Notes: a model not told the origin generated them from the sequence alone. A DNA stretch of 64,000 nucleotides from Faecousia sp. (GCA_045632785.1 JAZQXK010000097.1:1536-65535); one strand, 5' to 3'. Positions 6,034-61,483 are shown, counted from the first letter of the stretch. A program made the numbers and translations.

Positions 6034-6067
6034 TCGAGATGCACCTCTTTAATTGCAAAAATAGTAA

Positions 6068-6671
6068 GGCGGCGGCAGTCAGGGTAAACTTTACGGCTTA
6101 GGTCGGGTTGGTTTTCCCCACCGAGAACTCCCCGTTGCCGAAGGAGCGGTTTCCCTTTGATCTCGGCCTCCGGTTGTTACCAAGTCGGCTACCCGATTGC
6201 CACTGAGTCCGTACTGCAATCCCCTGACTGCCTGAACTACAGCCTAGGTGATTTCCACAGCAGAACATTCCAACTCTTAGCCTCTTTTGCAGATATAGTT
6301 TCCGGGGCGATAGTTGCTTTAACCCTTGGCCACGAGCAAAGAACTTTTTTCCCCTTCCCCGCATACCCACGCAAGGCAGGCTACACTGCACACAGCACGC
6401 GATTCTGCGCACTGCAATGCAGGTTCACATCTGTTTCGTACGCGGTCTTGGAGCCACAGGGCTCGCCATAGCCGTCGCACAATAGCAGGTCTCCACGGAA
6501 ACCGGGTCGTATACTCCATGCCATTGGAGTGCGCCCGGGATCCTTAACCCCCAGCACCCACCCCAAACTGGGCGTAAGCAGCAGGCACAAGGGACTTCAT
6601 CGATATGCCCTTCAAAGGATTTTTAGGCCCTTCTTGGGAGTTGGCAGTTCCGACTAGGATACTGCGCCGCC
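6068..6671 (-). ncRNA. ole: OLE RNA (ornate, large, extremophilic)
   Basis: About 604 nt of GC-rich, hairpin-dense sequence without a credible ORF. The ends pair (5' GGCGGC-GCAGU ... ACUGC-C-GCCGCC 3'). The 5' GCAGUAUCCUAGUCGG and 3' CCCUGACUGC resemble OLE termini as I recall them. Length and ispA-ole-oapA-dxs synteny are those of ole. Confidence 0.88.
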
Positions 6672-6677
6672 AAATAC

Positions 6678-6706
6678 ATCATAACACATAATTTATGAAT
6701 ATACAA
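6678..6706 (-). promoter_or_regulatory. SigA-type promoter of ole
   Basis: TTGTAT-17 nt-TATGAT with a TG extension. The -10 box ends 6 nt before the predicted RNA 5' end. Confidence 0.65.
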
Positions 6707-23316: not shown

Positions 23317-26300
23317 ATGAAACAACTGTTAAGCAAACGCATTGTACCACTACTTTTGGTGCTGGCTATGCTGATGGGCTTCGCTGTACCTGCAAATGCA
23401 GCAAAACCCCACACCGGTACCACGTCTTTGGAGTTCTCTCCCACGGAAGATGATGTCTCCATGTCCAGACTGGAAGACCCTGTGGATGTGGAGCAGCTTC
23501 AGCAAGATCCCTTGTACGCTGACACGGATATCATTCGTGTTTCCATTTTCTTAGAGCAGCCCTCCCTTTTGGAAATGGGCTACTCCACCATTGATCTCAG
23601 CACCAACGACCAGGCTATGATCCATCGGGATGGCCTAATGAAGGAACAGGCCAAGGTTGCTGACCGGATTGAAATAGCCCTGGCCGACAAGCTGGATGTG
23701 GTCTGGAACCTGACTCTGGCTGCCAACTTGATCTCTGCCAATGTTCCCTATGGCAAGATCGAGGCTATTGCCAATGTTCCCGGTGTTAAGGCTGTCATTC
23801 CCGAAACCCAGTATGAACCTGCCGTTGTGCAGCAGGAAGAAGCCGACCCCACCATGATTGCCGCTACCCCCATGACCGGTGCTGACTATGCCTGGTCTGT
23901 TGGCTACACCGGCGCGGGCAGCCGTATCGCTGTCATTGATACCGGCCTGGATACGGATCATCAGTCCTTCGACGAGTCTGCTTTCCTGTATTCCCTGGCT
24001 CATCAGGCAGGCCTCAAGGGCGAAGAAGCCGAGTCCTATGTTGCCGGTTTGGATCTGCTGGATGTGGATGAGATCGCTGCTGTTCAGGACAAGCTCAACA
24101 TCTCCATTGATCCCGCGCAGACATTCCTGAGCCAGAAGGTTCCCTTTGCCTATAACTACGTAGATGTTGACTATGATGTGACCCATGACAACGATACCCA
24201 GGGTGGTCACGGTTCTCACGTTGCCGGTATCGCTACCGCCAATGCCTTTATTCCCAAGGATGACGGCACCTTTGCCAATGCTCTGACTGAAACCCATGTT
24301 CAGGGTGTTGCCCCCGATGCACAGATTCTGATTATGAAGGTCTTTGGCAAGAACGGTGGTGCCTTTACTTCCGACTATATGGCTGCTATTGAAGATGCCA
24401 TTATGCTGGACTGTGACACCGTAAATCTGTCTCTGGGCTCTGCCAACCCCGGCCTGTCCCACTCTGTAGGCTATGAAGACTTCATGGAAGCTTGGGAAGC
24501 CTGCGACACAGCTGTGGTTATGGCTGCCGGTAACTCCGGAGCATGGGCAGATAAGTCCAGCACCGGCGTTCCCTACCTCTACGCCGAGGACGTGAACTTT
24601 GATACTGTTGGTTCTCCCGGTTCCTGGAGATACTCCATGTCTGTTGCTTCTGCCAACAACAACAGCCAGCATGTGCAGTATATTCAGGTTGGGGACACTA
24701 TGGTGACCTACAACCAGAGTTCCTATTCCAACGCCCCCATTGTTACCATTGCAGGTGACTATGAATATGTGTACATTGACGGCTTGGGTTCTGTTGAAGA
24801 ATGGGCTGCCGTGGGCGATACTCTGGCAGGCAAGGTTGCAGTTTGCAGCCGTGGCACACTGTCCTTCGCTGAGAAAGCCAACAACGCCGTTGCCGCAGGT
24901 GCTGTGGCTGTCATGATTTACAACAATCAGGACGGCACCATCAATATGGACCTGACAGACTACACCTACACCGCTCCTGTTGTTTCCATTACACAGGCTC
25001 ATGGTGCTGTTATGAAGCAGAATGCCGAAGCCGTGACCGACGATGCAGGCAATATCCTTTACTATCTGGGCAAGCTAAGCATTAAGGCAGAGCCCGGTAT
25101 CACCTCCACGGAGAGCGAATTTGTCACTATGAGCAGCTTCTCCTCCTGGGGCGTTGCCAGTGACCTGATCCTGAAGCCCGAGGTCACCACCCCCGGTGGC
25201 AGCATCTACTCCGTAGATGGTGAAGTGGATGGCGGCAAGGCCTATGTTACCAACTCCGGTACCTCCATGGCTGCCCCTCACGCCACCGGCTTGACTGCCC
25301 TCATTGCCCAGTATATCCGGGAAAATGATCTGGTTGCCAAGACCGGGCAGAGTCCCCGCCATCTAATCAACAGCTTGCTCATGTCCACCGCTACCCCCGA
25401 AATTGAGGAAGCCAGCGGTCACTATTGGTCCATCCTAAAACAGGGCGCCGGTATGGCCAATGCACCCGGTGCTATCTCTGCCGGTACTTACATCCTGATG
25501 GGTGCCAGTGCTACCGAGTTCTGGGCTGACGGCAAGGTAAAAGCCGAGCTGGGCCACGACCCCCAGCGCACCGGCCAGTATGACTTCATGTTCACGGTCA
25601 ACAACTTTAGCGATGTGGATAAAGCATACACCCTCAATGCCGACTTCTTCACCCAGGATATCCTCACCATTGGTGAATATGACTATCTGGATACCAAGAC
25701 CACTCCTATTGCTGCCAATGTTACTTACATGGTCAACGAAGAGCTCTACCGTCCTATGGGTACACTGGAATGTGACCTGAACGGCGACGGCGTTACCGAT
25801 GCGGCCGATGCCCAGATGATTCTGGAGTACTGCGCCGGTAATCTGGAAACCCTGGATCAGAAGGCCGATGTAAGCGGTGACGGCGTTATCTCTACCTATG
25901 ATGCCCACATGATCCTGAACAACATGGAAACCCAGGCCTTCGTGGTAAAGCCCGGCGAAACTGCATATGTTGAGGTGCGGATTGAACTGGACGAGAATGT
26001 GAAGGCATGGCTGGATGAGAACTATGTCAACGGCGCATATCTGGAAGGCTATGTATTTACTCTTCCTGTTACCAATGAAGAAGGCGAGATGGGCTTTGCC
26101 CACTCCATCCCTGTACTTGGCTTCTATGGCGACTGGAATGATGCTTCCTACTTCGAGAAGTCTAACTATTGGGATAAGCAGTACGGCACAGGCAAGCTCA
26201 ATTACACGCCTGAGGATCCTGAGGTTGGTGCTATGTTTGTCGGCCGTAAGGATTCAACTGTTGTTCGTGCAAAGGAAGCCAATCCCTACATGATCGAGGA

Positions 26301-56504: not shown

Positions 56505-56520
56505 CAACATGGAGGTAAAT

Positions 56521-57594
56521 ATGATGAAAAGACTGCTTTGTATGATGCTTCTTATTGTTCTTATGCTCTGCGGCTGTTCCGGGTTAAAGGAATCGGACAG
56601 AATGTCCCATATCTATTATGATGGCACGGATTGGGTAGACATTCTCTGGAGGGATTTCAGCTTTGAGGAACAGGAAGCCGGAATGCGCGGAGAAATCGCA
56701 CTCACCAGAAACAAGGTTTTTGGAGACAGCAAACTGCAAGAAGCGGCCAAAAAAGCGGCTCGGCGGCTAAATCTAACGGAAGCCGCAGACCTGCTGGAAT
56801 ACGCTGCCCGCATAACCCCGTCTGTGATCGAAAGCGGCTATCTGTCGGAAGCACCAAATCTTAAACAAGATAATCGTGATTGGAAGCTGTACTTTATTGT
56901 CGTAATGAATGACGGCGTAGCCTTACTTCACTATGATGAAAAAGCCGCCCCGGAGTATGAAAATGGAATCAAACTGGAAGCTCGTTATGGAAAAAAGGAC
57001 GGTGGCTCCTATGTGATCGTATCTCTTTTAGATGGGCACATCATCGGCTTCCAAGGTGCACATTATGGTCTGATTTCCGGCAAAGAACCGGGCACATGGA
57101 CAAAGGAGAAGGATTTTGAAATTCCACCCCATCCGCCTGTAGAGCGCATAGCATTTCATGCAATCACAATGGAAGAAAAGTTTTACTATGAATACCAACA
57201 CTGCCGGAAAGATGATGCTACATACCATGCTGTTCCTACCAGTAGGGATGCACGGATCCCAGATGAGAAATTACAGGATAGCGCAAAGGAACTTACTGGC
57301 GGTTTGGATATCTCCACCCCGGAGGGTATGGCAGAATATCTTGTAAAACTGGGTGACCGGTTCCTCGACACAAATTATCAAATTTGCGGACCGGATTTTG
57401 AGGTATATGGTATTGATCGATACGTTGACGGTGTATGGTCGATCGACTATACAAGCAAATTTACAGACACGACCGGGAAAGAAACCATAGAACGCAGTAG
57501 TGTTTACGTATCCGAGGATGATGGGCATCTTGTGTGCATCATCGATTGGAATGGTAAAGTGATAACCGGCAATTCCAACACTGACTATTACTAA
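56521..57594 (+). CDS. Uncharacterised lipoprotein with two internal repeat modules
   Basis: MMKRLL..LMLCGC lipobox after GGAGG. Two LQ..A..L..EY / DG / S..DGH modules. Confidence 0.8.
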   Translation: MMKRLLCMMLLIVLMLCGCSGLKESDRMSHIYYDGTDWVDILWRDFSFEEQEAGMRGEIALTRNKVFGDSKLQEAAKKAARRLNLTEAADLLEYAARITPSVIESGYLSEAPNLKQDNRDWKLYFIVVMNDGVALLHYDEKAAPEYENGIKLEARYGKKDGGSYVIVSLLDGHIIGFQGAHYGLISGKEPGTWTKEKDFEIPPHPPVERIAFHAITMEEKFYYEYQHCRKDDATYHAVPTSRDARIPDEKLQDSAKELTGGLDISTPEGMAEYLVKLGDRFLDTNYQICGPDFEVYGIDRYVDGVWSIDYTSKFTDTTGKETIERSSVYVSEDDGHLVCIIDWNGKVITGNSNTDYY

Positions 57595-57611: not shown

Positions 57612-59012
57612 ATGAAAAGACTATTTGCTCTTATTCTGCTCATAACCCTAATGCTCTGCGGCTGTGCCAAGCCTGAAGAACCGGAACGGTTATCACGGAT
57701 ATTTTATGACGGCACAGACTGCTTTGGGCTAAGTTGGATGGGCTGCACCTACGAGGAAGACGAAATTGCAATGCGTGGAGTTTCTTTACTGTCCCGAAGC
57801 AAAGCATTTGGTGACAGGAAACTGCAGGAAGCAGCCAAAGATGCTGCTATGGGATTGGAGCTTACATCGGCTACAGACCTTTTAGAGTACGCCGTCCGCC
57901 TGACCCCGGCGGTGCTGGAAAGCGGCTATTTTGAAGACGAGTATAATAAGGCAGAAGATGTGGCAGGTTGGAAGCTGGACTTTGCCAACCTTTACAGCGA
58001 CGGTATCGCTGTGTTCCACTTCGACGAGAAGCCCGCCCCGGAGTATGAAAACGGATATAAGCTGCAATACCGCCCCGCAAAATATGACGGGGGTGCTTAT
58101 GCGGTAGTGTCCCTTCTGGATGGGCATATTATAAGCCTGCAGGATGGTTGGAATCGAGCCATTTCCGCCAAAGAGACGGATACCCGGGTAAAGGAAAAGG
58201 CTTTTGCAATGCCCACCATGCCTTTTGACCTGGACATAGACTTCACGGATGTTACGCTGGAAGAACATTTTTACAGTACATACCAATCCCTGCATAAGGA
58301 TGATACCCTTTTTCATGCCGCACCCAAAAGCAGCAAGGAAAAACTCAAGGACAATCAGTTACAAAAAAATGCCATGGAACTTGCCCACGGCTTAAACCTA
58401 AAAACCCCGGAGGGCATGGCAGAGTATGCCCTGGAGCTGGGAGAGCTGCTGATTGACTCAGACTACAATATGTGCCGCCAAGGCTTTCAGATTTCTAGTA
58501 TCGAGCGGTATACAGACGGTGTATGGGCCATCAATTATAGTAATGCAGTCACACGCATAGACGGAAAAGAGACAACAAAATGGAGCACAGCCTATATTTC
58601 TGAGGAGGATGGGCACATCATCTGCATGACAGATCTGGCGAATGGGCTGGTCCTGGGCGAATCTGACATACGATATAAGGCGCCGCAGGTAAAAATTGAC
58701 GAGGAACAATCATTTTTTAGTGATTTCAAGGTGGACAACGGAAAGGTAACCATCAAATGCCACATTGTTTTGATCAATACCGTACACTATCCCATAGAGG
58801 CTTCCTTACTGGCAGACTTTACGGAGGATGTGGTGGGTGGATTGTTGCAGGAGGCTAAGATCCTTGGGGCGTCGGCAAGCAATCACAATATAAAATCCTT
58901 TCTCGTAAGTCCGGGTGGCAAAGCCTTTGAGATAGATTTTTGCGGCACTTTTGCCGGCACAATGCAGAAGCAGGATCGCCTTCTTCCGGAAATCGAAATT
59001 ATCGAGCATTAA
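57612..59012 (+). CDS. Paralogous lipoprotein with an extra C-terminal ~110-aa domain
   Basis: MKRLF..LMLCGC lipobox. Colinear similarity with the upstream gene. Extra tail ending GTFAGTMQKQDRLLPEIEII. Confidence 0.8.
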   Translation: MKRLFALILLITLMLCGCAKPEEPERLSRIFYDGTDCFGLSWMGCTYEEDEIAMRGVSLLSRSKAFGDRKLQEAAKDAAMGLELTSATDLLEYAVRLTPAVLESGYFEDEYNKAEDVAGWKLDFANLYSDGIAVFHFDEKPAPEYENGYKLQYRPAKYDGGAYAVVSLLDGHIISLQDGWNRAISAKETDTRVKEKAFAMPTMPFDLDIDFTDVTLEEHFYSTYQSLHKDDTLFHAAPKSSKEKLKDNQLQKNAMELAHGLNLKTPEGMAEYALELGELLIDSDYNMCRQGFQISSIERYTDGVWAINYSNAVTRIDGKETTKWSTAYISEEDGHIICMTDLANGLVLGESDIRYKAPQVKIDEEQSFFSDFKVDNGKVTIKCHIVLINTVHYPIEASLLADFTEDVVGGLLQEAKILGASASNHNIKSFLVSPGGKAFEIDFCGTFAGTMQKQDRLLPEIEIIEH

Positions 59013-59117
59013 TTATGAATGAACGGGCCGAGCCAATCAATGAGTTCTCCGCATTCTTGTATAAAGAAAAGGAGGCAAAAGCCTCCATGATTTAATTGCA
59101 AGGAGCAATTAAAAGTA

Positions 59118-59331
59118 TTCAATGATGCATCGCCTGACAGCGATATGATGTTATGCTACGCATAATGGTGTTGCTCATTTCATTCGCACTAGTGCAATGT
59201 TTGCCAAATAACATTAGCGAAGCGACATCTTTAGGCGTAGCCGTCATCATAAGCAATGCGACATCATTTGCTGAAGGCAAACACAATTCAAAAAAGCCTG
59301 ATCTGTCCACCGGACAAATCAGGCCTTTTTG
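59118..59331. repeat. Multi-hairpin palindromic element A (ATGATG-type) plus terminal TGTC/GACA hairpin
   Basis: Starts TTCAATGAT-GC-ATCGC..GCGAT-ATGAT, with repeated ATG(A/G)TG units and inverted CATC/CATT units. Ends in AAAAAGCCTGATCTGTC..GACAAATCAGGCCTTTTT. Confidence 0.65.
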
Positions 59332-59389
59332 TTGCGTAAGAGTGACTAAAAGTAGCGTAAGTAGGGGTAAGAAACACAAAAAGTACACC

Positions 59390-59872
59390 TTAAATTTGGC
59401 ACCAAAGCTTAATCTTCTTTATATTTGTTGCGCTTAAACACCAAACAACATAACGCTTGTTATCCACAGTCGTAATGATTACTTTGTTCGACGATCCGAC
59501 TCTACCTGATTCAAGCTTATGTTTGATAGATTGAATGTGCTTTTTATGTATCGCACTGCTTCCAGCCCAGATCAACCAATCCTTGCTCAAATACAATGTA
59601 GTTTCGAGGTGGTTTGCATCGGTGTCTGAGAACACCGTATCATACAACGATTCTTGTCGCACAATCATTTTCCGGAAGCGAATAATTGGCAACAAACTGA
59701 CCAAAACACAAATAAGAGCGATGGGAAATGGGACAAATGCAATAATCAAATCATAAGATAATACATCATAAACCAAACTAACGATAAGCAAAGGAATAAA
59801 AACAAGTGTCGCACAAATCAAAGCGACAATACTGTTTCTTTTTAGATATATTTTTATGTATTTTTCGACCAC
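59390..59872 (-). CDS. Small AT-rich membrane protein
   Basis: ORF 59390..59980 trimmed to GTG 59872 (AAGGGGTG SD). Two TM helices followed by a small beta-rich soluble domain. Confidence 0.7.
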   Translation of the reverse strand: MVEKYIKIYLKRNSIVALICATLVFIPLLIVSLVYDVLSYDLIIAFVPFPIALICVLVSLLPIIRFRKMIVRQESLYDTVFSDTDANHLETTLYLSKDWLIWAGSSAIHKKHIQSIKHKLESGRVGSSNKVIITTVDNKRYVVWCLSATNIKKIKLWCQI

Positions 59873-59891
59873 AACATCACCCCTTTGCATT

Positions 59892-59920
59892 ATTATATCA
59901 TCATTTATTGCACTTTTCAA
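59892..59920 (-). promoter_or_regulatory. Hybrid SigA promoter whose -35 box is supplied by element B
   Basis: TTGAAA (59920-59915, inside the element terminus)-17-TATAAT (59897-59892). Confidence 0.6.
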
Positions 59921-60128
59921 TGATATATCGCTTGTGCGATATGATATACGGTGTTGCCGTATGATATACTTGCTTCGCAAGCATGATATAATATCCGTTC
60001 CTACATACGCGAAGCGTATATCATCGCACGATAGTGCGATATCATATCGAAGATATATCGCCCGTTCTGGCAGGAACGGATATCATTGAAAAAAGTCACC
60101 TTTGTCAGTAGACAAAAGTGACTTTTTT
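59914..60128. repeat. Multi-hairpin palindromic element B (ATGATATA-type) plus terminal TGTC/GACA hairpin
   Basis: 13-bp terminal IR TTTTCAATGATAT/ATATCATTGAAAA, ATGATATA x4, inverted units x4, and about 7 small hairpins. Ends in AAAAAAGTCACCTTTGTC..GACAAAAGTGACTTTTTT, which doubles as the tRNA terminator. Confidence 0.8.
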
Positions 60129-60130
60129 CG

Positions 60131-60214
60131 TGGTGCGGGAGATGGGACTCGAACCCACACGGCGGTCACCACACGCACCTCAAACGTGCTTGTCTACCAT
60201 TCCAACACTCCCGC
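60131..60214 (-). tRNA. tRNA-Leu(GAG)
   Basis: GCGGGAGTGTTGGAATGGTAGACAAGCACGTTTGAGGTGCGTGTGGTGACCGCCGTGTGGGTTCGAGTCCCATCTCCCGCACCA. 84 nt, long variable arm, CCA encoded. Confidence 0.97.
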
Positions 60215-60233
60215 ATAAATTGAATGCTCGCTT

Positions 60234-60262
60234 ATTATAGCCAAACAGGTATGATTTGTCAA
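60234..60262 (-). promoter_or_regulatory. Consensus SigA promoter of tRNA-Leu
   Basis: TTGACA-17-TATAAT. Confidence 0.85.
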
Positions 60263-60349
60263 CACCTTTTTCGAAAAAATCAACATCAACTTTTGTACGT
60301 CGAATGAGGATTTCTGGCTTAGTTCACCTGTGAGCAGATGGTCAAGTCC

Positions 60350-60491
60350 TGTGGAAAACTCCGTTTTTGCTTCAAAAATTCGACTTGTTCTGACGGCTCT
60401 CCCCTGATTTCACCATAGGTTAGTTAACAATAATCCTGTTTTCAAGTCTTATACACATATGTTTTCCACATTATCCACAGGTTTTTCCACA
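60350..60491. promoter_or_regulatory. Cluster of five DnaA boxes (TTWTNCACA)
   Basis: TGTGGAAAA 60350 (reverse), TTATACACA 60449, TTTTCCACA 60462, TTATCCACA 60471 and TTTTCCACA 60483. Confidence 0.7.
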
Positions 60492-60742
60492 GTTATGTTT
60501 ACCGTATGGACACCAGAAGTTAGAGATAGCTGCCATTTCGTGAAGATACCATAACTATTTACCAGCATTTCAAATAAACCCCGGAATTTAACATAATTTT
60601 ATGATCCCATTCTCTTTCTTTCGATGCAGTACAGGAGGAAGCTGTCAAAAAAGTTGCATGACTGTATTAAAGTGGGATATGAGTGGTTTATTTCAGAGAT
60701 AAGGAGGAAATATAGAAAAACCCGGAAGCATTCTCCGGGCTT

Positions 60743-61483
60743 TTACTTGGCAACCTCTAAGAGTTGCCGTGTATAGGGGTGCTGAGGATTGCGGAAAACT
60801 TCCTCCGCAGTATTGAGCTCCACAATATGACCGTTTTTCATCACCATGACCCTGTCGCAGATCTGGTAGACCACATTAAGATCGTGACTGATAAAGAGAA
60901 CACTCAAATTATACTGCTTACGCAGCTCCAGAATAAGCTTCAAAATCTGCCCCTGAACGGTAACATCCAAAGCACTGACAGGCTCGTCTGCCACGATCAA
61001 CTTGGGATGGGTAATGACAGCAGCACCCAATGCAACTCTCTGCCGCTGACCGCCTGAAAGCTCATAGGGCAGTCGGTTCGTATACTCCTCCCCCAGTCCG
61101 ATCTGCTCCAGAATCCGCAAAACTTCCTGTTTCCTTTGCGCCTTATTCAGTTTCCCCTGAATACGCAAAGGCTCTTCCAAAATCCTGCCCACTGTATAAC
61201 TTGGGTTCAGGCTGCTGTACGGATCCTGGAAGACCATTTGCGGCAACTTAGTATCACATAGGATCAGACCCTCATAGTCCTGCAGAAGCCCTGTAATGGC
61301 CTTGGAGAGGGTCGTCTTTCCACTGCCGCTCTCCCCTACCAAACCTAAGATCTCACCCTCATAAAGAGAGAAAGAGACATCGTGAAGAACCTGCTTCCGT
61401 TTTGTCTTTGAGGCAAAAAGGACGTGCTCATCCTCATAAAAGCTATTAAGATTTTGAACAGACAAAACAGCTTTCTGCTCCAC
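60743..61483 (-). CDS. Peptide/nickel ABC transporter ATPase (OppF/DppF-like)
   Basis: GESGSGKT, FQDPYSSLNP, LSGGQRQR and ADEPVSALD motifs. Confidence 0.92.
   Translation of the reverse strand: MEQKAVLSVQNLNSFYEDEHVLFASKTKRKQVLHDVSFSLYEGEILGLVGESGSGKTTLSKAITGLLQDYEGLILCDTKLPQMVFQDPYSSLNPSYTVGRILEEPLRIQGKLNKAQRKQEVLRILEQIGLGEEYTNRLPYELSGGQRQRVALGAAVITHPKLIVADEPVSALDVTVQGQILKLILELRKQYNLSVLFISHDLNVVYQICDRVMVMKNGHIVELNTAEEVFRNPQHPYTRQLLEVAK

Follow-up and report, generated by a model that had tools for sequence, protein, structure and literature searches.

Two related palindromic elements lie beside a tRNA gene in the genome of a Faecousia sp. (GCA_045632785.1, JAZQXK010000097.1:1536-65535), and the question raised by this locus is whether they bracket a mobile gene or head one. 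Within this 64,000-nt stretch (hereafter the window), of which positions 58500-60800 were read in detail, elements A (59118-59331) and B (59914-60128) point the same way, with a single AT-rich gene between them, and only 2 nt separate B from the CCA end of tRNA-Leu(GAG), where a stack of cassettes begins. The initial annotation considered both elements and the enclosed gene as one element-gene-element unit that accumulates at tRNA 3' ends, belongs to no named family and is mobilised in trans in the manner of integron attC cassettes or of REPINs (hairpin-forming doublets of repetitive extragenic palindromic, REP, sequences). On balance, comparison of the sequences leads us to favor a different arrangement, in which B would head a self-contained cassette, A would be the head of an older unit, cassettes would be exchanged between tRNA ends and the array within B would be read by PF05635 (Avd-like) proteins.

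In this arrangement, a 0.8-kb cassette headed by B would occupy the junction at which the CCA end of tRNA-Leu(GAG) formerly met the downstream sequence of that tRNA. It would consist of a bidirectional terminator shutting off tRNA transcription, a 4+4 heptamer array (ATGATAT, then ATATCAT) whose flush hairpins vary in sequence and length, a strong outward promoter with its -35 hexamer within the last repeat, one cargo gene and a short repeated tail, while A would head the next unit, which has lost its promoter and gene or never had them. The array would act as a docking platform for PF05635 four-helix-bundle proteins, here supplied in trans and recognising extruded or single-stranded nucleic acid, and binding over the -35 hexamer would control the cargo promoter, mark the recombination junction of the cassette, or both. 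Movement would proceed by recombination at the junction of (pseudo-)tRNA end and terminator, through a recombinase acting in trans or homologous exchange between heads. The features concerned, with their strands, are as follows.

60234-60262 (-): promoter of tRNA-Leu, TTGACA-17-TATAAT (consensus scan, 12/12 matches)
60131-60214 (-): tRNA-Leu(GAG), CCA encoded (Rfam tRNA, 48.4 bits)
60088-60129 (no strand assigned): bidirectional intrinsic terminator opening unit B, composed of an A-run, GTCACTTTTGTC / GACAAAGGTGAC and a T-run (arms 60088-60106 and 60111-60129, 95% complementary)
60013-60088 (-): tRNA-proximal half of array B, four flush hairpins with (A/G)TGATAT heptamers between them (Rfam Gut-1, 51.2 bits, above the gathering score)
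59918-59994 (+): distal half of array B, three hairpins with, reading away from the tRNA, ATATCAT linkers (Rfam Gut-1, 47.6 bits, just below the gathering score)
59892-59920 (-): predicted outward sigma-70 promoter, TTGAAA-17-(TG)TATAAT (consensus scan, 11/12 matches)
59390-59872 (-): cargo gene, 160 aa, with a GTG start behind AAGGGGTGA (open reading frame between A and B)
59332-59389 (-): cassette tail, two direct copies of a unit of about 20 nt (TACTTTTTGTGTTTCTTAC / TACTTTTAGTCACTCTTAC) ending in ..CGCA (repeat; limit of the conserved block)
59289-59331 (no strand assigned): bidirectional terminator opening unit A (arms 59289-59308 and 59312-59331, 90% complementary; consensus scan)
59118-59288 (-): array A, of an ATGATG-linker subtype, mildly decayed, with no usable promoter or gene behind it (alignment with other arrays)
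59103-59117 (-): possible tail unit (TACTTTTAATTGCTC) right after array A (80% repeat match, a weak call)

Identity of the two elements and the cargo

Element B is a convergent (back-to-back) pair of the known Gut-1 motif (Rfam RF01706, gathering score 50 bits), and the match of its tRNA-proximal half is also returned when the whole window is scanned with Rfam at gathering thresholds. Given these two matches, B is not a member of an unnamed family, contrary to the initial annotation, which had itself listed a match to a known motif as speaking against its proposal. Weinberg et al. (2010, PMC2864571) described Gut-1 from human-gut metagenomes as a probable non-coding RNA whose function was unknown; a search of the literature found no later work on it. 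What B shares with the published motif are the 3-4 short covarying hairpins, the conserved (G/A)UGA(A/U)AU linker and the occurrence in uncultured gut bacteria. However, Gut-1 in Rfam is a 77-nt RNA of a single orientation, whereas here two facing copies stand between a terminator and a promoter, the pair follows a tRNA gene and heads a gene cassette, and the subtype of A goes undetected by the Rfam model.

Reading the region confirmed that A and B share both orientation and ends, i.e., the opening TTCAATGAT-NN-ATCGC-loop-GCGAT-ATGAT and a closing hairpin of the form A-run / ..TGTC-N-GACA.. / T-run (the ends being TTCAATGAT...ATCATTGAA), as annotated. A is of a different subtype, and the Gut-1 model finds nothing in it at E <= 10. 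Arrays with ATGATG linkers, 76-84% identical to A, exist in the genome carrying the window (G000; assembly of 2.26 Mb, 51.5% GC, 48 tRNA genes), where one lies behind tRNA-Glu on C21, and in other genomes. Aligned with four of these arrays, A differs 3-4 times in linkers that do not otherwise vary (GAATTGTG for GAATGATG, AAAGATG for AATGATG, CACCATT for CATCATT), and is thus a mildly decayed member of a sister subtype that Rfam misses, not a copy of B. The possible tail unit TACTTTTAATTGCTC following it might weakly hint at a unit in which promoter and gene were lost; a tail directly after an array has a comparable case at C95:7021 of G000.

Folded as a single strand, B scores better than all of its 200 shuffled versions (z = -7.9, 0/200 as good). 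The spacers between its heptamers are 9-18 nt long and each is self-complementary. Because spacer lengths vary, the heptamers are not phased on the double helix, and since the spacers nevertheless pair with themselves, the heptamers would become neighbors only on hairpin folding; it would then be the folded form that is recognised. Across an alignment of 12 related B-type arrays the local hairpins keep their pairing, with double changes at 13 pairs, and the linkers are invariant. Linker-linker pairs never vary in these 12 arrays and thus carry no signal on long-range pairing, so that a pairing of the two halves of B into a stack of four-way junctions, also considered, gains and loses nothing from them. 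Differences among cassette copies, otherwise about 97% identical, cluster in two hairpins, which are replaced wholesale by other, still perfectly paired stems (window 60030-60060 vs L044:325-355); this suggests module exchange or palindrome correction, not point-by-point drift.

Downstream of the array, the -35 hexamer of the cargo promoter lies within the terminal repeat ATATCATTGAAA, an arrangement kept in 10 of the 12 related arrays and at other loci, and transcription of the cargo gene is predicted to end at the terminator at 59289-59331. The cargo is, as annotated, a single AT-rich membrane gene, and its 36% GC against 51.5% for the genome indicates foreign composition. The 160-aa length of its product is the commonest among its 83 homologues, and two transmembrane (hydrophobic) helices are predicted in it. 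The confident structure model (pLDDT 88) is a seven-stranded sandwich with a C-terminal helix cap whose nearest structural neighbors, at weak scores, are PH domains, and for the C-terminal part it predicts a generic PH-like fold only. Searches of Pfam, NCBIfam and PADLOC gave no match for the protein.

Cassettes behind other tRNA genes and in other genomes

Elements of this kind are multicopy, variable in cargo and enriched at tRNA 3' ends, three expectations of the initial annotation that were borne out. A search of G000 at E <= 1 gives 44 Gut-1 matches, of which 18 exceed the gathering score; many lie at contig ends. They fall into two classes, namely about 20 single-orientation intergenic copies (type 1) and about 14 arrays paired in the manner of A and B. 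Of the 48 tRNA genes, 8 have a paired array immediately after them (Glu-TTC, Tyr, Ala-CGC, Asp-GTC, Leu-GAG, Leu-TAA, Gly-GCC and Gly-CCC), and further paired arrays are second in a stack or follow a tRNA end cut by a contig boundary. By chance, about 0.1 of the roughly 14 paired arrays would be expected directly behind tRNA genes. The 300 nt behind tRNA transcription units amount to less than 0.5% of the genome, and the enrichment is very strong. The tRNA-Thr gene elsewhere in the window is followed by a plain terminator without an array.

All paired arrays of G000 have a common layout when read in tRNA orientation: CCA plus 0-2 nt, an A-run, a terminator hairpin (often with an inner TTTGTCTAC-N-GACAAA, as in the terminator of B and in units behind other tRNAs), a T-run, (C/G)AATGA(A/T)AT, forward units, a center, inverted units, and then an exit of AT(A/T)TCATTGAAA, 17 nt, TATAAT, a ribosome-binding site and a small gene. 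Their polarity is fixed, i.e., the terminator faces the tRNA and the promoter points away from it, and in some arrays (C120, C137, C95 and L045, the 'reverse-order' arrays) the antisense half is nearest the tRNA. The genes behind the arrays differ; among the products encoded in cassettes of G000 and related genomes are small lipoproteins and further uncharacterised proteins, a C_GCAxxG_C_C protein and members of PF05635.

The same block as in the window, starting at the A-run that follows CCA and finishing with the tail ...TACTTTTAGTCA(C/G)TCTT(A/T)CGCA, was found in five other contigs among the contexts of the 83 cargo homologues, which mostly lie on short contigs. Three of the five (L048, L049 and L050) belong to metagenome-assembled genomes named as three different species-level bins (Acutalibacteraceae/Eubacteriales), and two (L043 and L044) are unbinned metagenome contigs. 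The block is 91-94% identical to the window over 810-885 nt, the tRNA genes of these contigs are only 80-88% identical to those of G000, and their flanks are without any match. To its left stand tRNA-Val(CAC) in L044, a pseudo-tRNA end in L043, tRNA-Ser(GGA) in L048 and, in both L049 and L050, another tRNA-like end. On the far side of the tail the window has A, L043 and L044 a GTGAAGT-type array, L048 a reverse-order ATATCAT array, and L049 and L050 other terminators, so that the five contigs have four different right flanks, each opening with a new A-run and terminator. The moving unit is thus, as far as sequence comparison can tell, terminator-array-promoter-gene-tail of 0.8 kb, and the element-gene-element unit proposed initially has to be given up; because the sequence after the tail differs in every context, A would be the head of the next unit and no right-hand bracket would exist.

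Re-assortment of heads and genes is seen as well. In L051 (a Faecousia) the gene preceded by an A-type array behind tRNA-Gly(CCC) is this cargo; in L045 a reverse-order array behind tRNA-Ser precedes it, and in L047 it comes after tRNA-Leu(GAG) with no recognisable array. Members of the genus also differ in what lies behind tRNA-Leu(GAG), G024 having a B-type array with a PF05635 gene, and G019 a plain terminator and then a housekeeping gene. These comparisons support an exchange of cassettes between different tRNA 3' ends and between genomes. Carriage by phages or plasmids was ruled against, as blastn of the cassette gave no match in either the phage or the plasmid collection. Exact-protein look-ups of both flanking genes and the cargo for same-species alleles found nothing, and the terminator of A, searched as an exact pattern, is absent from the JGI (Joint Genome Institute) metagenomes.

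Several further observations concern these units and the neighborhood of A. Type-1 copies (C4:6171-6245, C32:2441-2515, C41:4071-4264, C46:6585-6654, C163:829-891 and 1423-1485, and about 12 more in G000) have fixed ends, with a GNGCC-N4-GGCNC hairpin, CA(A/G)TGA(A/T)AT, 3-4 hairpins and GTTGNGGTGTCCC-N4-GGGAC-GATTTGAAAT; several come right after stop codons, and they resemble REP or BOX elements. At C95:6951-7040 and C103:290-400 of G000 a B-type terminator and CAATG(ATAT) are followed by the tail motif or unrelated DNA, with neither array nor gene, and such units may have arisen by deletion or represent empty platforms. Between the array/terminator and the promoter of lipoprotein cargo genes lie five or six AATCGTTAAA iterons spaced about 20 nt apart (C91:22490-22590 and 23735-23835 and C16:34210-34310 in G000; L045:3830-3925), and nearly identical 251-aa lipoprotein genes are found behind tRNA-Ala (as the second unit) and tRNA-Leu(TAG). 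In the window itself, tandem paralogous lipoprotein-like genes of 361 and 466 aa, without Pfam match, converge on A (56509-57594 and 57612-59012, both +), and a full-length OLE RNA, a known family (RF01071, 434.9 bits), lies at 6053-6686 (-).

Candidate readers and movers of the cassette

The best-supported function of the array would be that of a cis-acting cassette head, combining an insulator terminator, a protein-docking array and a promoter, and PF05635 proteins are its likely, though putative, readers. In G000, paired arrays immediately precede four of the six PF05635 genes, one of which is a pseudogene; a fifth comes directly after tRNA-Lys, with no hairpin array, and the sixth is at a contig end. 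At C25:267-425, where the gene is behind tRNA-Lys, AATAGTG heptads are contiguous, direct then inverted, with no hairpin spacers, and may represent an unspaced form of the same kind of site. Both Gut-1 and PF05635 are absent from most other genera of the family to which G000 belongs. Among 151 genomes of the order, 61 have Gut-1 and PF05635, 6 only Gut-1, 14 only PF05635 and 70 neither, a genome-level association (odds ratio 51, p = 2e-21) computed with kinship ignored.

This disregard of phylogeny counts against a self-contained, PF05635-read cassette headed by B, and so do the following points. Similarity among PF05635 proteins following heptamer type was looked for and not seen in a small sample of six proteins: the L032 protein, from an ATGATAT array, is 60% identical to a GTGATGC-array protein vs 44% to the ATGATAT-array protein of C120. 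The cargo in the window is not a PF05635 gene, and the fold of array A is no better than chance (z = -0.96, 32/200 shuffles as good). There is no recombinase on this contig, in line with the initial annotation, and none is linked to the cassette; nor does any copy of the tRNA-Leu 3' 18-mer (<= 2 mismatches) occur within 8 kb. Finally, the sharp boundaries of the block may mark merely the end of homology between heads, which leaves site-specific insertion unproven.

Of movers, G000 offers 11 tyrosine recombinases (PF00589), several of which adjoin tRNA genes in ordinary 7-kb islands with an exact repeat of the tRNA end at their limits; none lies on this contig or beside an array-bearing tRNA. 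Some sister units also finish in a copy of the local tRNA 3' end, exact over 18-23 nt (tRNA-Ala at C91, Gln at C79, Leu-CAA at C95 and Ser at L045), which is the signature of site-specific integration. Such copies are embedded in a palindromic block of 150-240 nt behind tRNA genes (C79:2200-2445, C95:6797-6955 and C91:22810-22910 in G000; L043:1330-1450; L045:3560-3712) in which the tRNA 3' end is first copied imperfectly and in inverted form, GC hairpins come next, and the exact 18-23-nt copy including CCA stands last, and the block looks like an att-type or foldback recombination site separating some cassettes. A decayed tRNA-Leu fragment after the window cassette seemed plausible by eye and was rejected, as 1834 of 5000 shuffles reach its score. 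Movement could be explained either by a recombinase active in trans at the (pseudo-)tRNA-end/terminator junction or by homologous exchange via the conserved heads; an enzyme recognising hairpins in single-stranded DNA is no more than a possibility. Copying by a reverse transcriptase with tRNA priming, an idea prompted by a boundary lying exactly at CCA and by the Avd-like partner, was rejected on the grounds that the RVT_1 search of G000 had no match.

It is unlikely, in our estimation, that Gut-1 is instead a structured non-coding RNA, serving as a 3' trailer of tRNA read-through or as a sponge for an RNA-binding protein, with its placement behind tRNAs reflecting expression needs. Avd-type proteins do bind RNA in diversity-generating retroelements, which is counted for such a role, and the type-1 copies are intergenic, several of them right after stop codons. 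The hairpin covariation, the Rfam model itself and the rating as a likely non-coding RNA (PMC2864571) point in the same direction. However, a strong predicted terminator separates the tRNA from the array and no promoter faces into it, any one transcript would contain only half of each pair in sense orientation, and the reverse-order arrays (C120, C137, C95 and L045) put the antisense half by the tRNA. A role as RNA would also leave unexplained why terminator, array, promoter, gene and tail travel jointly between tRNAs.

We consider it distinctly improbable that the cassettes are debris of integrase-driven tRNA islands, i.e., integrase-less remnants accreted in tandem, with arrays that served as arm-type or accessory attP sites. 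The tyrosine recombinases that border tRNA genes in repeat-bounded 7-kb islands, and the exact tRNA 3' end copies that end sister cassettes (as at tRNA-Ala of C91 and tRNA-Ser of L045), speak for such an origin. The window cassette itself lacks the tRNA-Leu end repeat, the likeness of its tail to the tRNA is not significant, and no integrase lies beside any array-bearing tRNA. Moreover, one array type stands behind at least 8 different tRNAs, which is not expected of a sequence-specific integrase, and arm sites would not need covarying hairpins.

Very improbable, lastly, are selfish hairpin repeats of the REPIN or MITE (miniature inverted-repeat transposable element) kind, which a Y1/HUH transposase working on single-stranded DNA would spread in trans and between which a gene would be trapped. 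B does have perfect 13-bp terminal inverted repeats (TTTTCAATGATAT / ATATCATTGAAAA; no target duplication is evident, and no parent element was sought), and the elements are multicopy, many at contig ends, in a genome with one RAYT-like (REP-associated tyrosine transposase) Y1 gene, but the paired arrays are not scattered, occurring at tRNA ends with fixed polarity, the gene travels with one head and not between two, and that sole Y1 gene (C121:4237-4530) is flanked by GTAGGGAACGGC..GCCGTTCC GTAG-hairpin REPs of unrelated sequence, not by heptamer-hairpin arrays, for which reason Y1/RAYT mobilisation was rejected. The Y1 gene is apparently also interrupted by GTAGGGAACGGC-loop-GCCGTTCC REPs (C121:4000-4650), and the same REPs are often seen just after type-1 Gut-1 copies (C140, C181).

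Known systems and the meaning of the locus

The likeness to integron cassette arrays, invoked by the initial annotation through attC, lies in tandem one-gene cassettes at a fixed chromosomal site, an imperfectly palindromic hairpin element and a cargo that varies between strains. It does not extend to the machinery, as there is no IntI (none of the 11 PF00589 matches is adjacent), no attI and no RYYYAAC/GTTRRRY core; the palindromic element here precedes the gene and has its own terminator and promoter (the cassettes are not promoterless, a near-consensus outward promoter being predicted in each head, 11/12), and the anchor is the CCA end of many tRNA genes. A previously undescribed cassette platform of gut Clostridia, defined by Gut-1 arrays with their terminators and tails and functionally analogous to integrons, in which one-gene units would insert at the CCA/terminator junction of essentially any tRNA gene, stack in tandem and cross species, with the folded array read by PF05635 proteins as a recognition and control site and no cassette-encoded recombinase, is a tentative proposal that we regard as possible, if doubtful.

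The omega repressor of plasmid pSM19035 offers another comparison, as it recognises 7-bp repeats (WATCACW), direct and inverted, upstream of or overlapping promoters, through cooperative reading by a small protein. Heptamer runs by a promoter, direct and inverted, are common to both; omega heptads are contiguous double-stranded DNA with a ribbon-helix-helix reader, whereas those described here are split by variable-length hairpins and their candidate reader is a four-helix bundle. The CIMEs (cis-mobilisable elements) of streptococcal ICEs (integrative and conjugative elements) and the tycheposons of Prochlorococcus are tRNA-anchored islands built by tandem accretion. Here, too, cargo stacks behind tRNA genes, some units lack an integrase and partial tRNA repeats lie between some of them (C91, L045), but the units measure 0.6-1.2 kb, are found behind many different tRNAs and have a heptamer-hairpin head; the far-end tRNA repeat of CIMEs, present at the sister units in C91, C79, C95 and L045, is absent from the window cassette.

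PF05635 is a large family that, to our knowledge, is known only from the Avd proteins of diversity-generating retroelements and from rRNA intervening sequences. Both of these resemble the present cassettes in being small four-helix-bundle genes tied to stable-RNA genes and inverted-repeat elements, and sister cassettes do encode PF05635 proteins. However, G000 is without reverse transcriptase, the site is after tRNA genes and not within 23S rRNA, and the window cassette holds a membrane PH-like protein instead. The literature searched held nothing connecting Gut-1 or PF05635 with tRNA flanks.

The locus ties Gut-1, which has had no function since 2010, and PF05635 to one concrete genetic unit whose boundaries are exact, with CCA plus 0-2 nt on one side and the ..CGCA tail on the other, and it shows this unit with genes other than PF05635 as cargo and passing from tRNA to tRNA and from species to species. 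If the movement is site-specific, the array would be a new nucleic-acid recognition site, with heptamers united by the folding of their spacers, and the cassettes would give abundant gut Clostridia a new way of taking up small accessory genes and expressing them.

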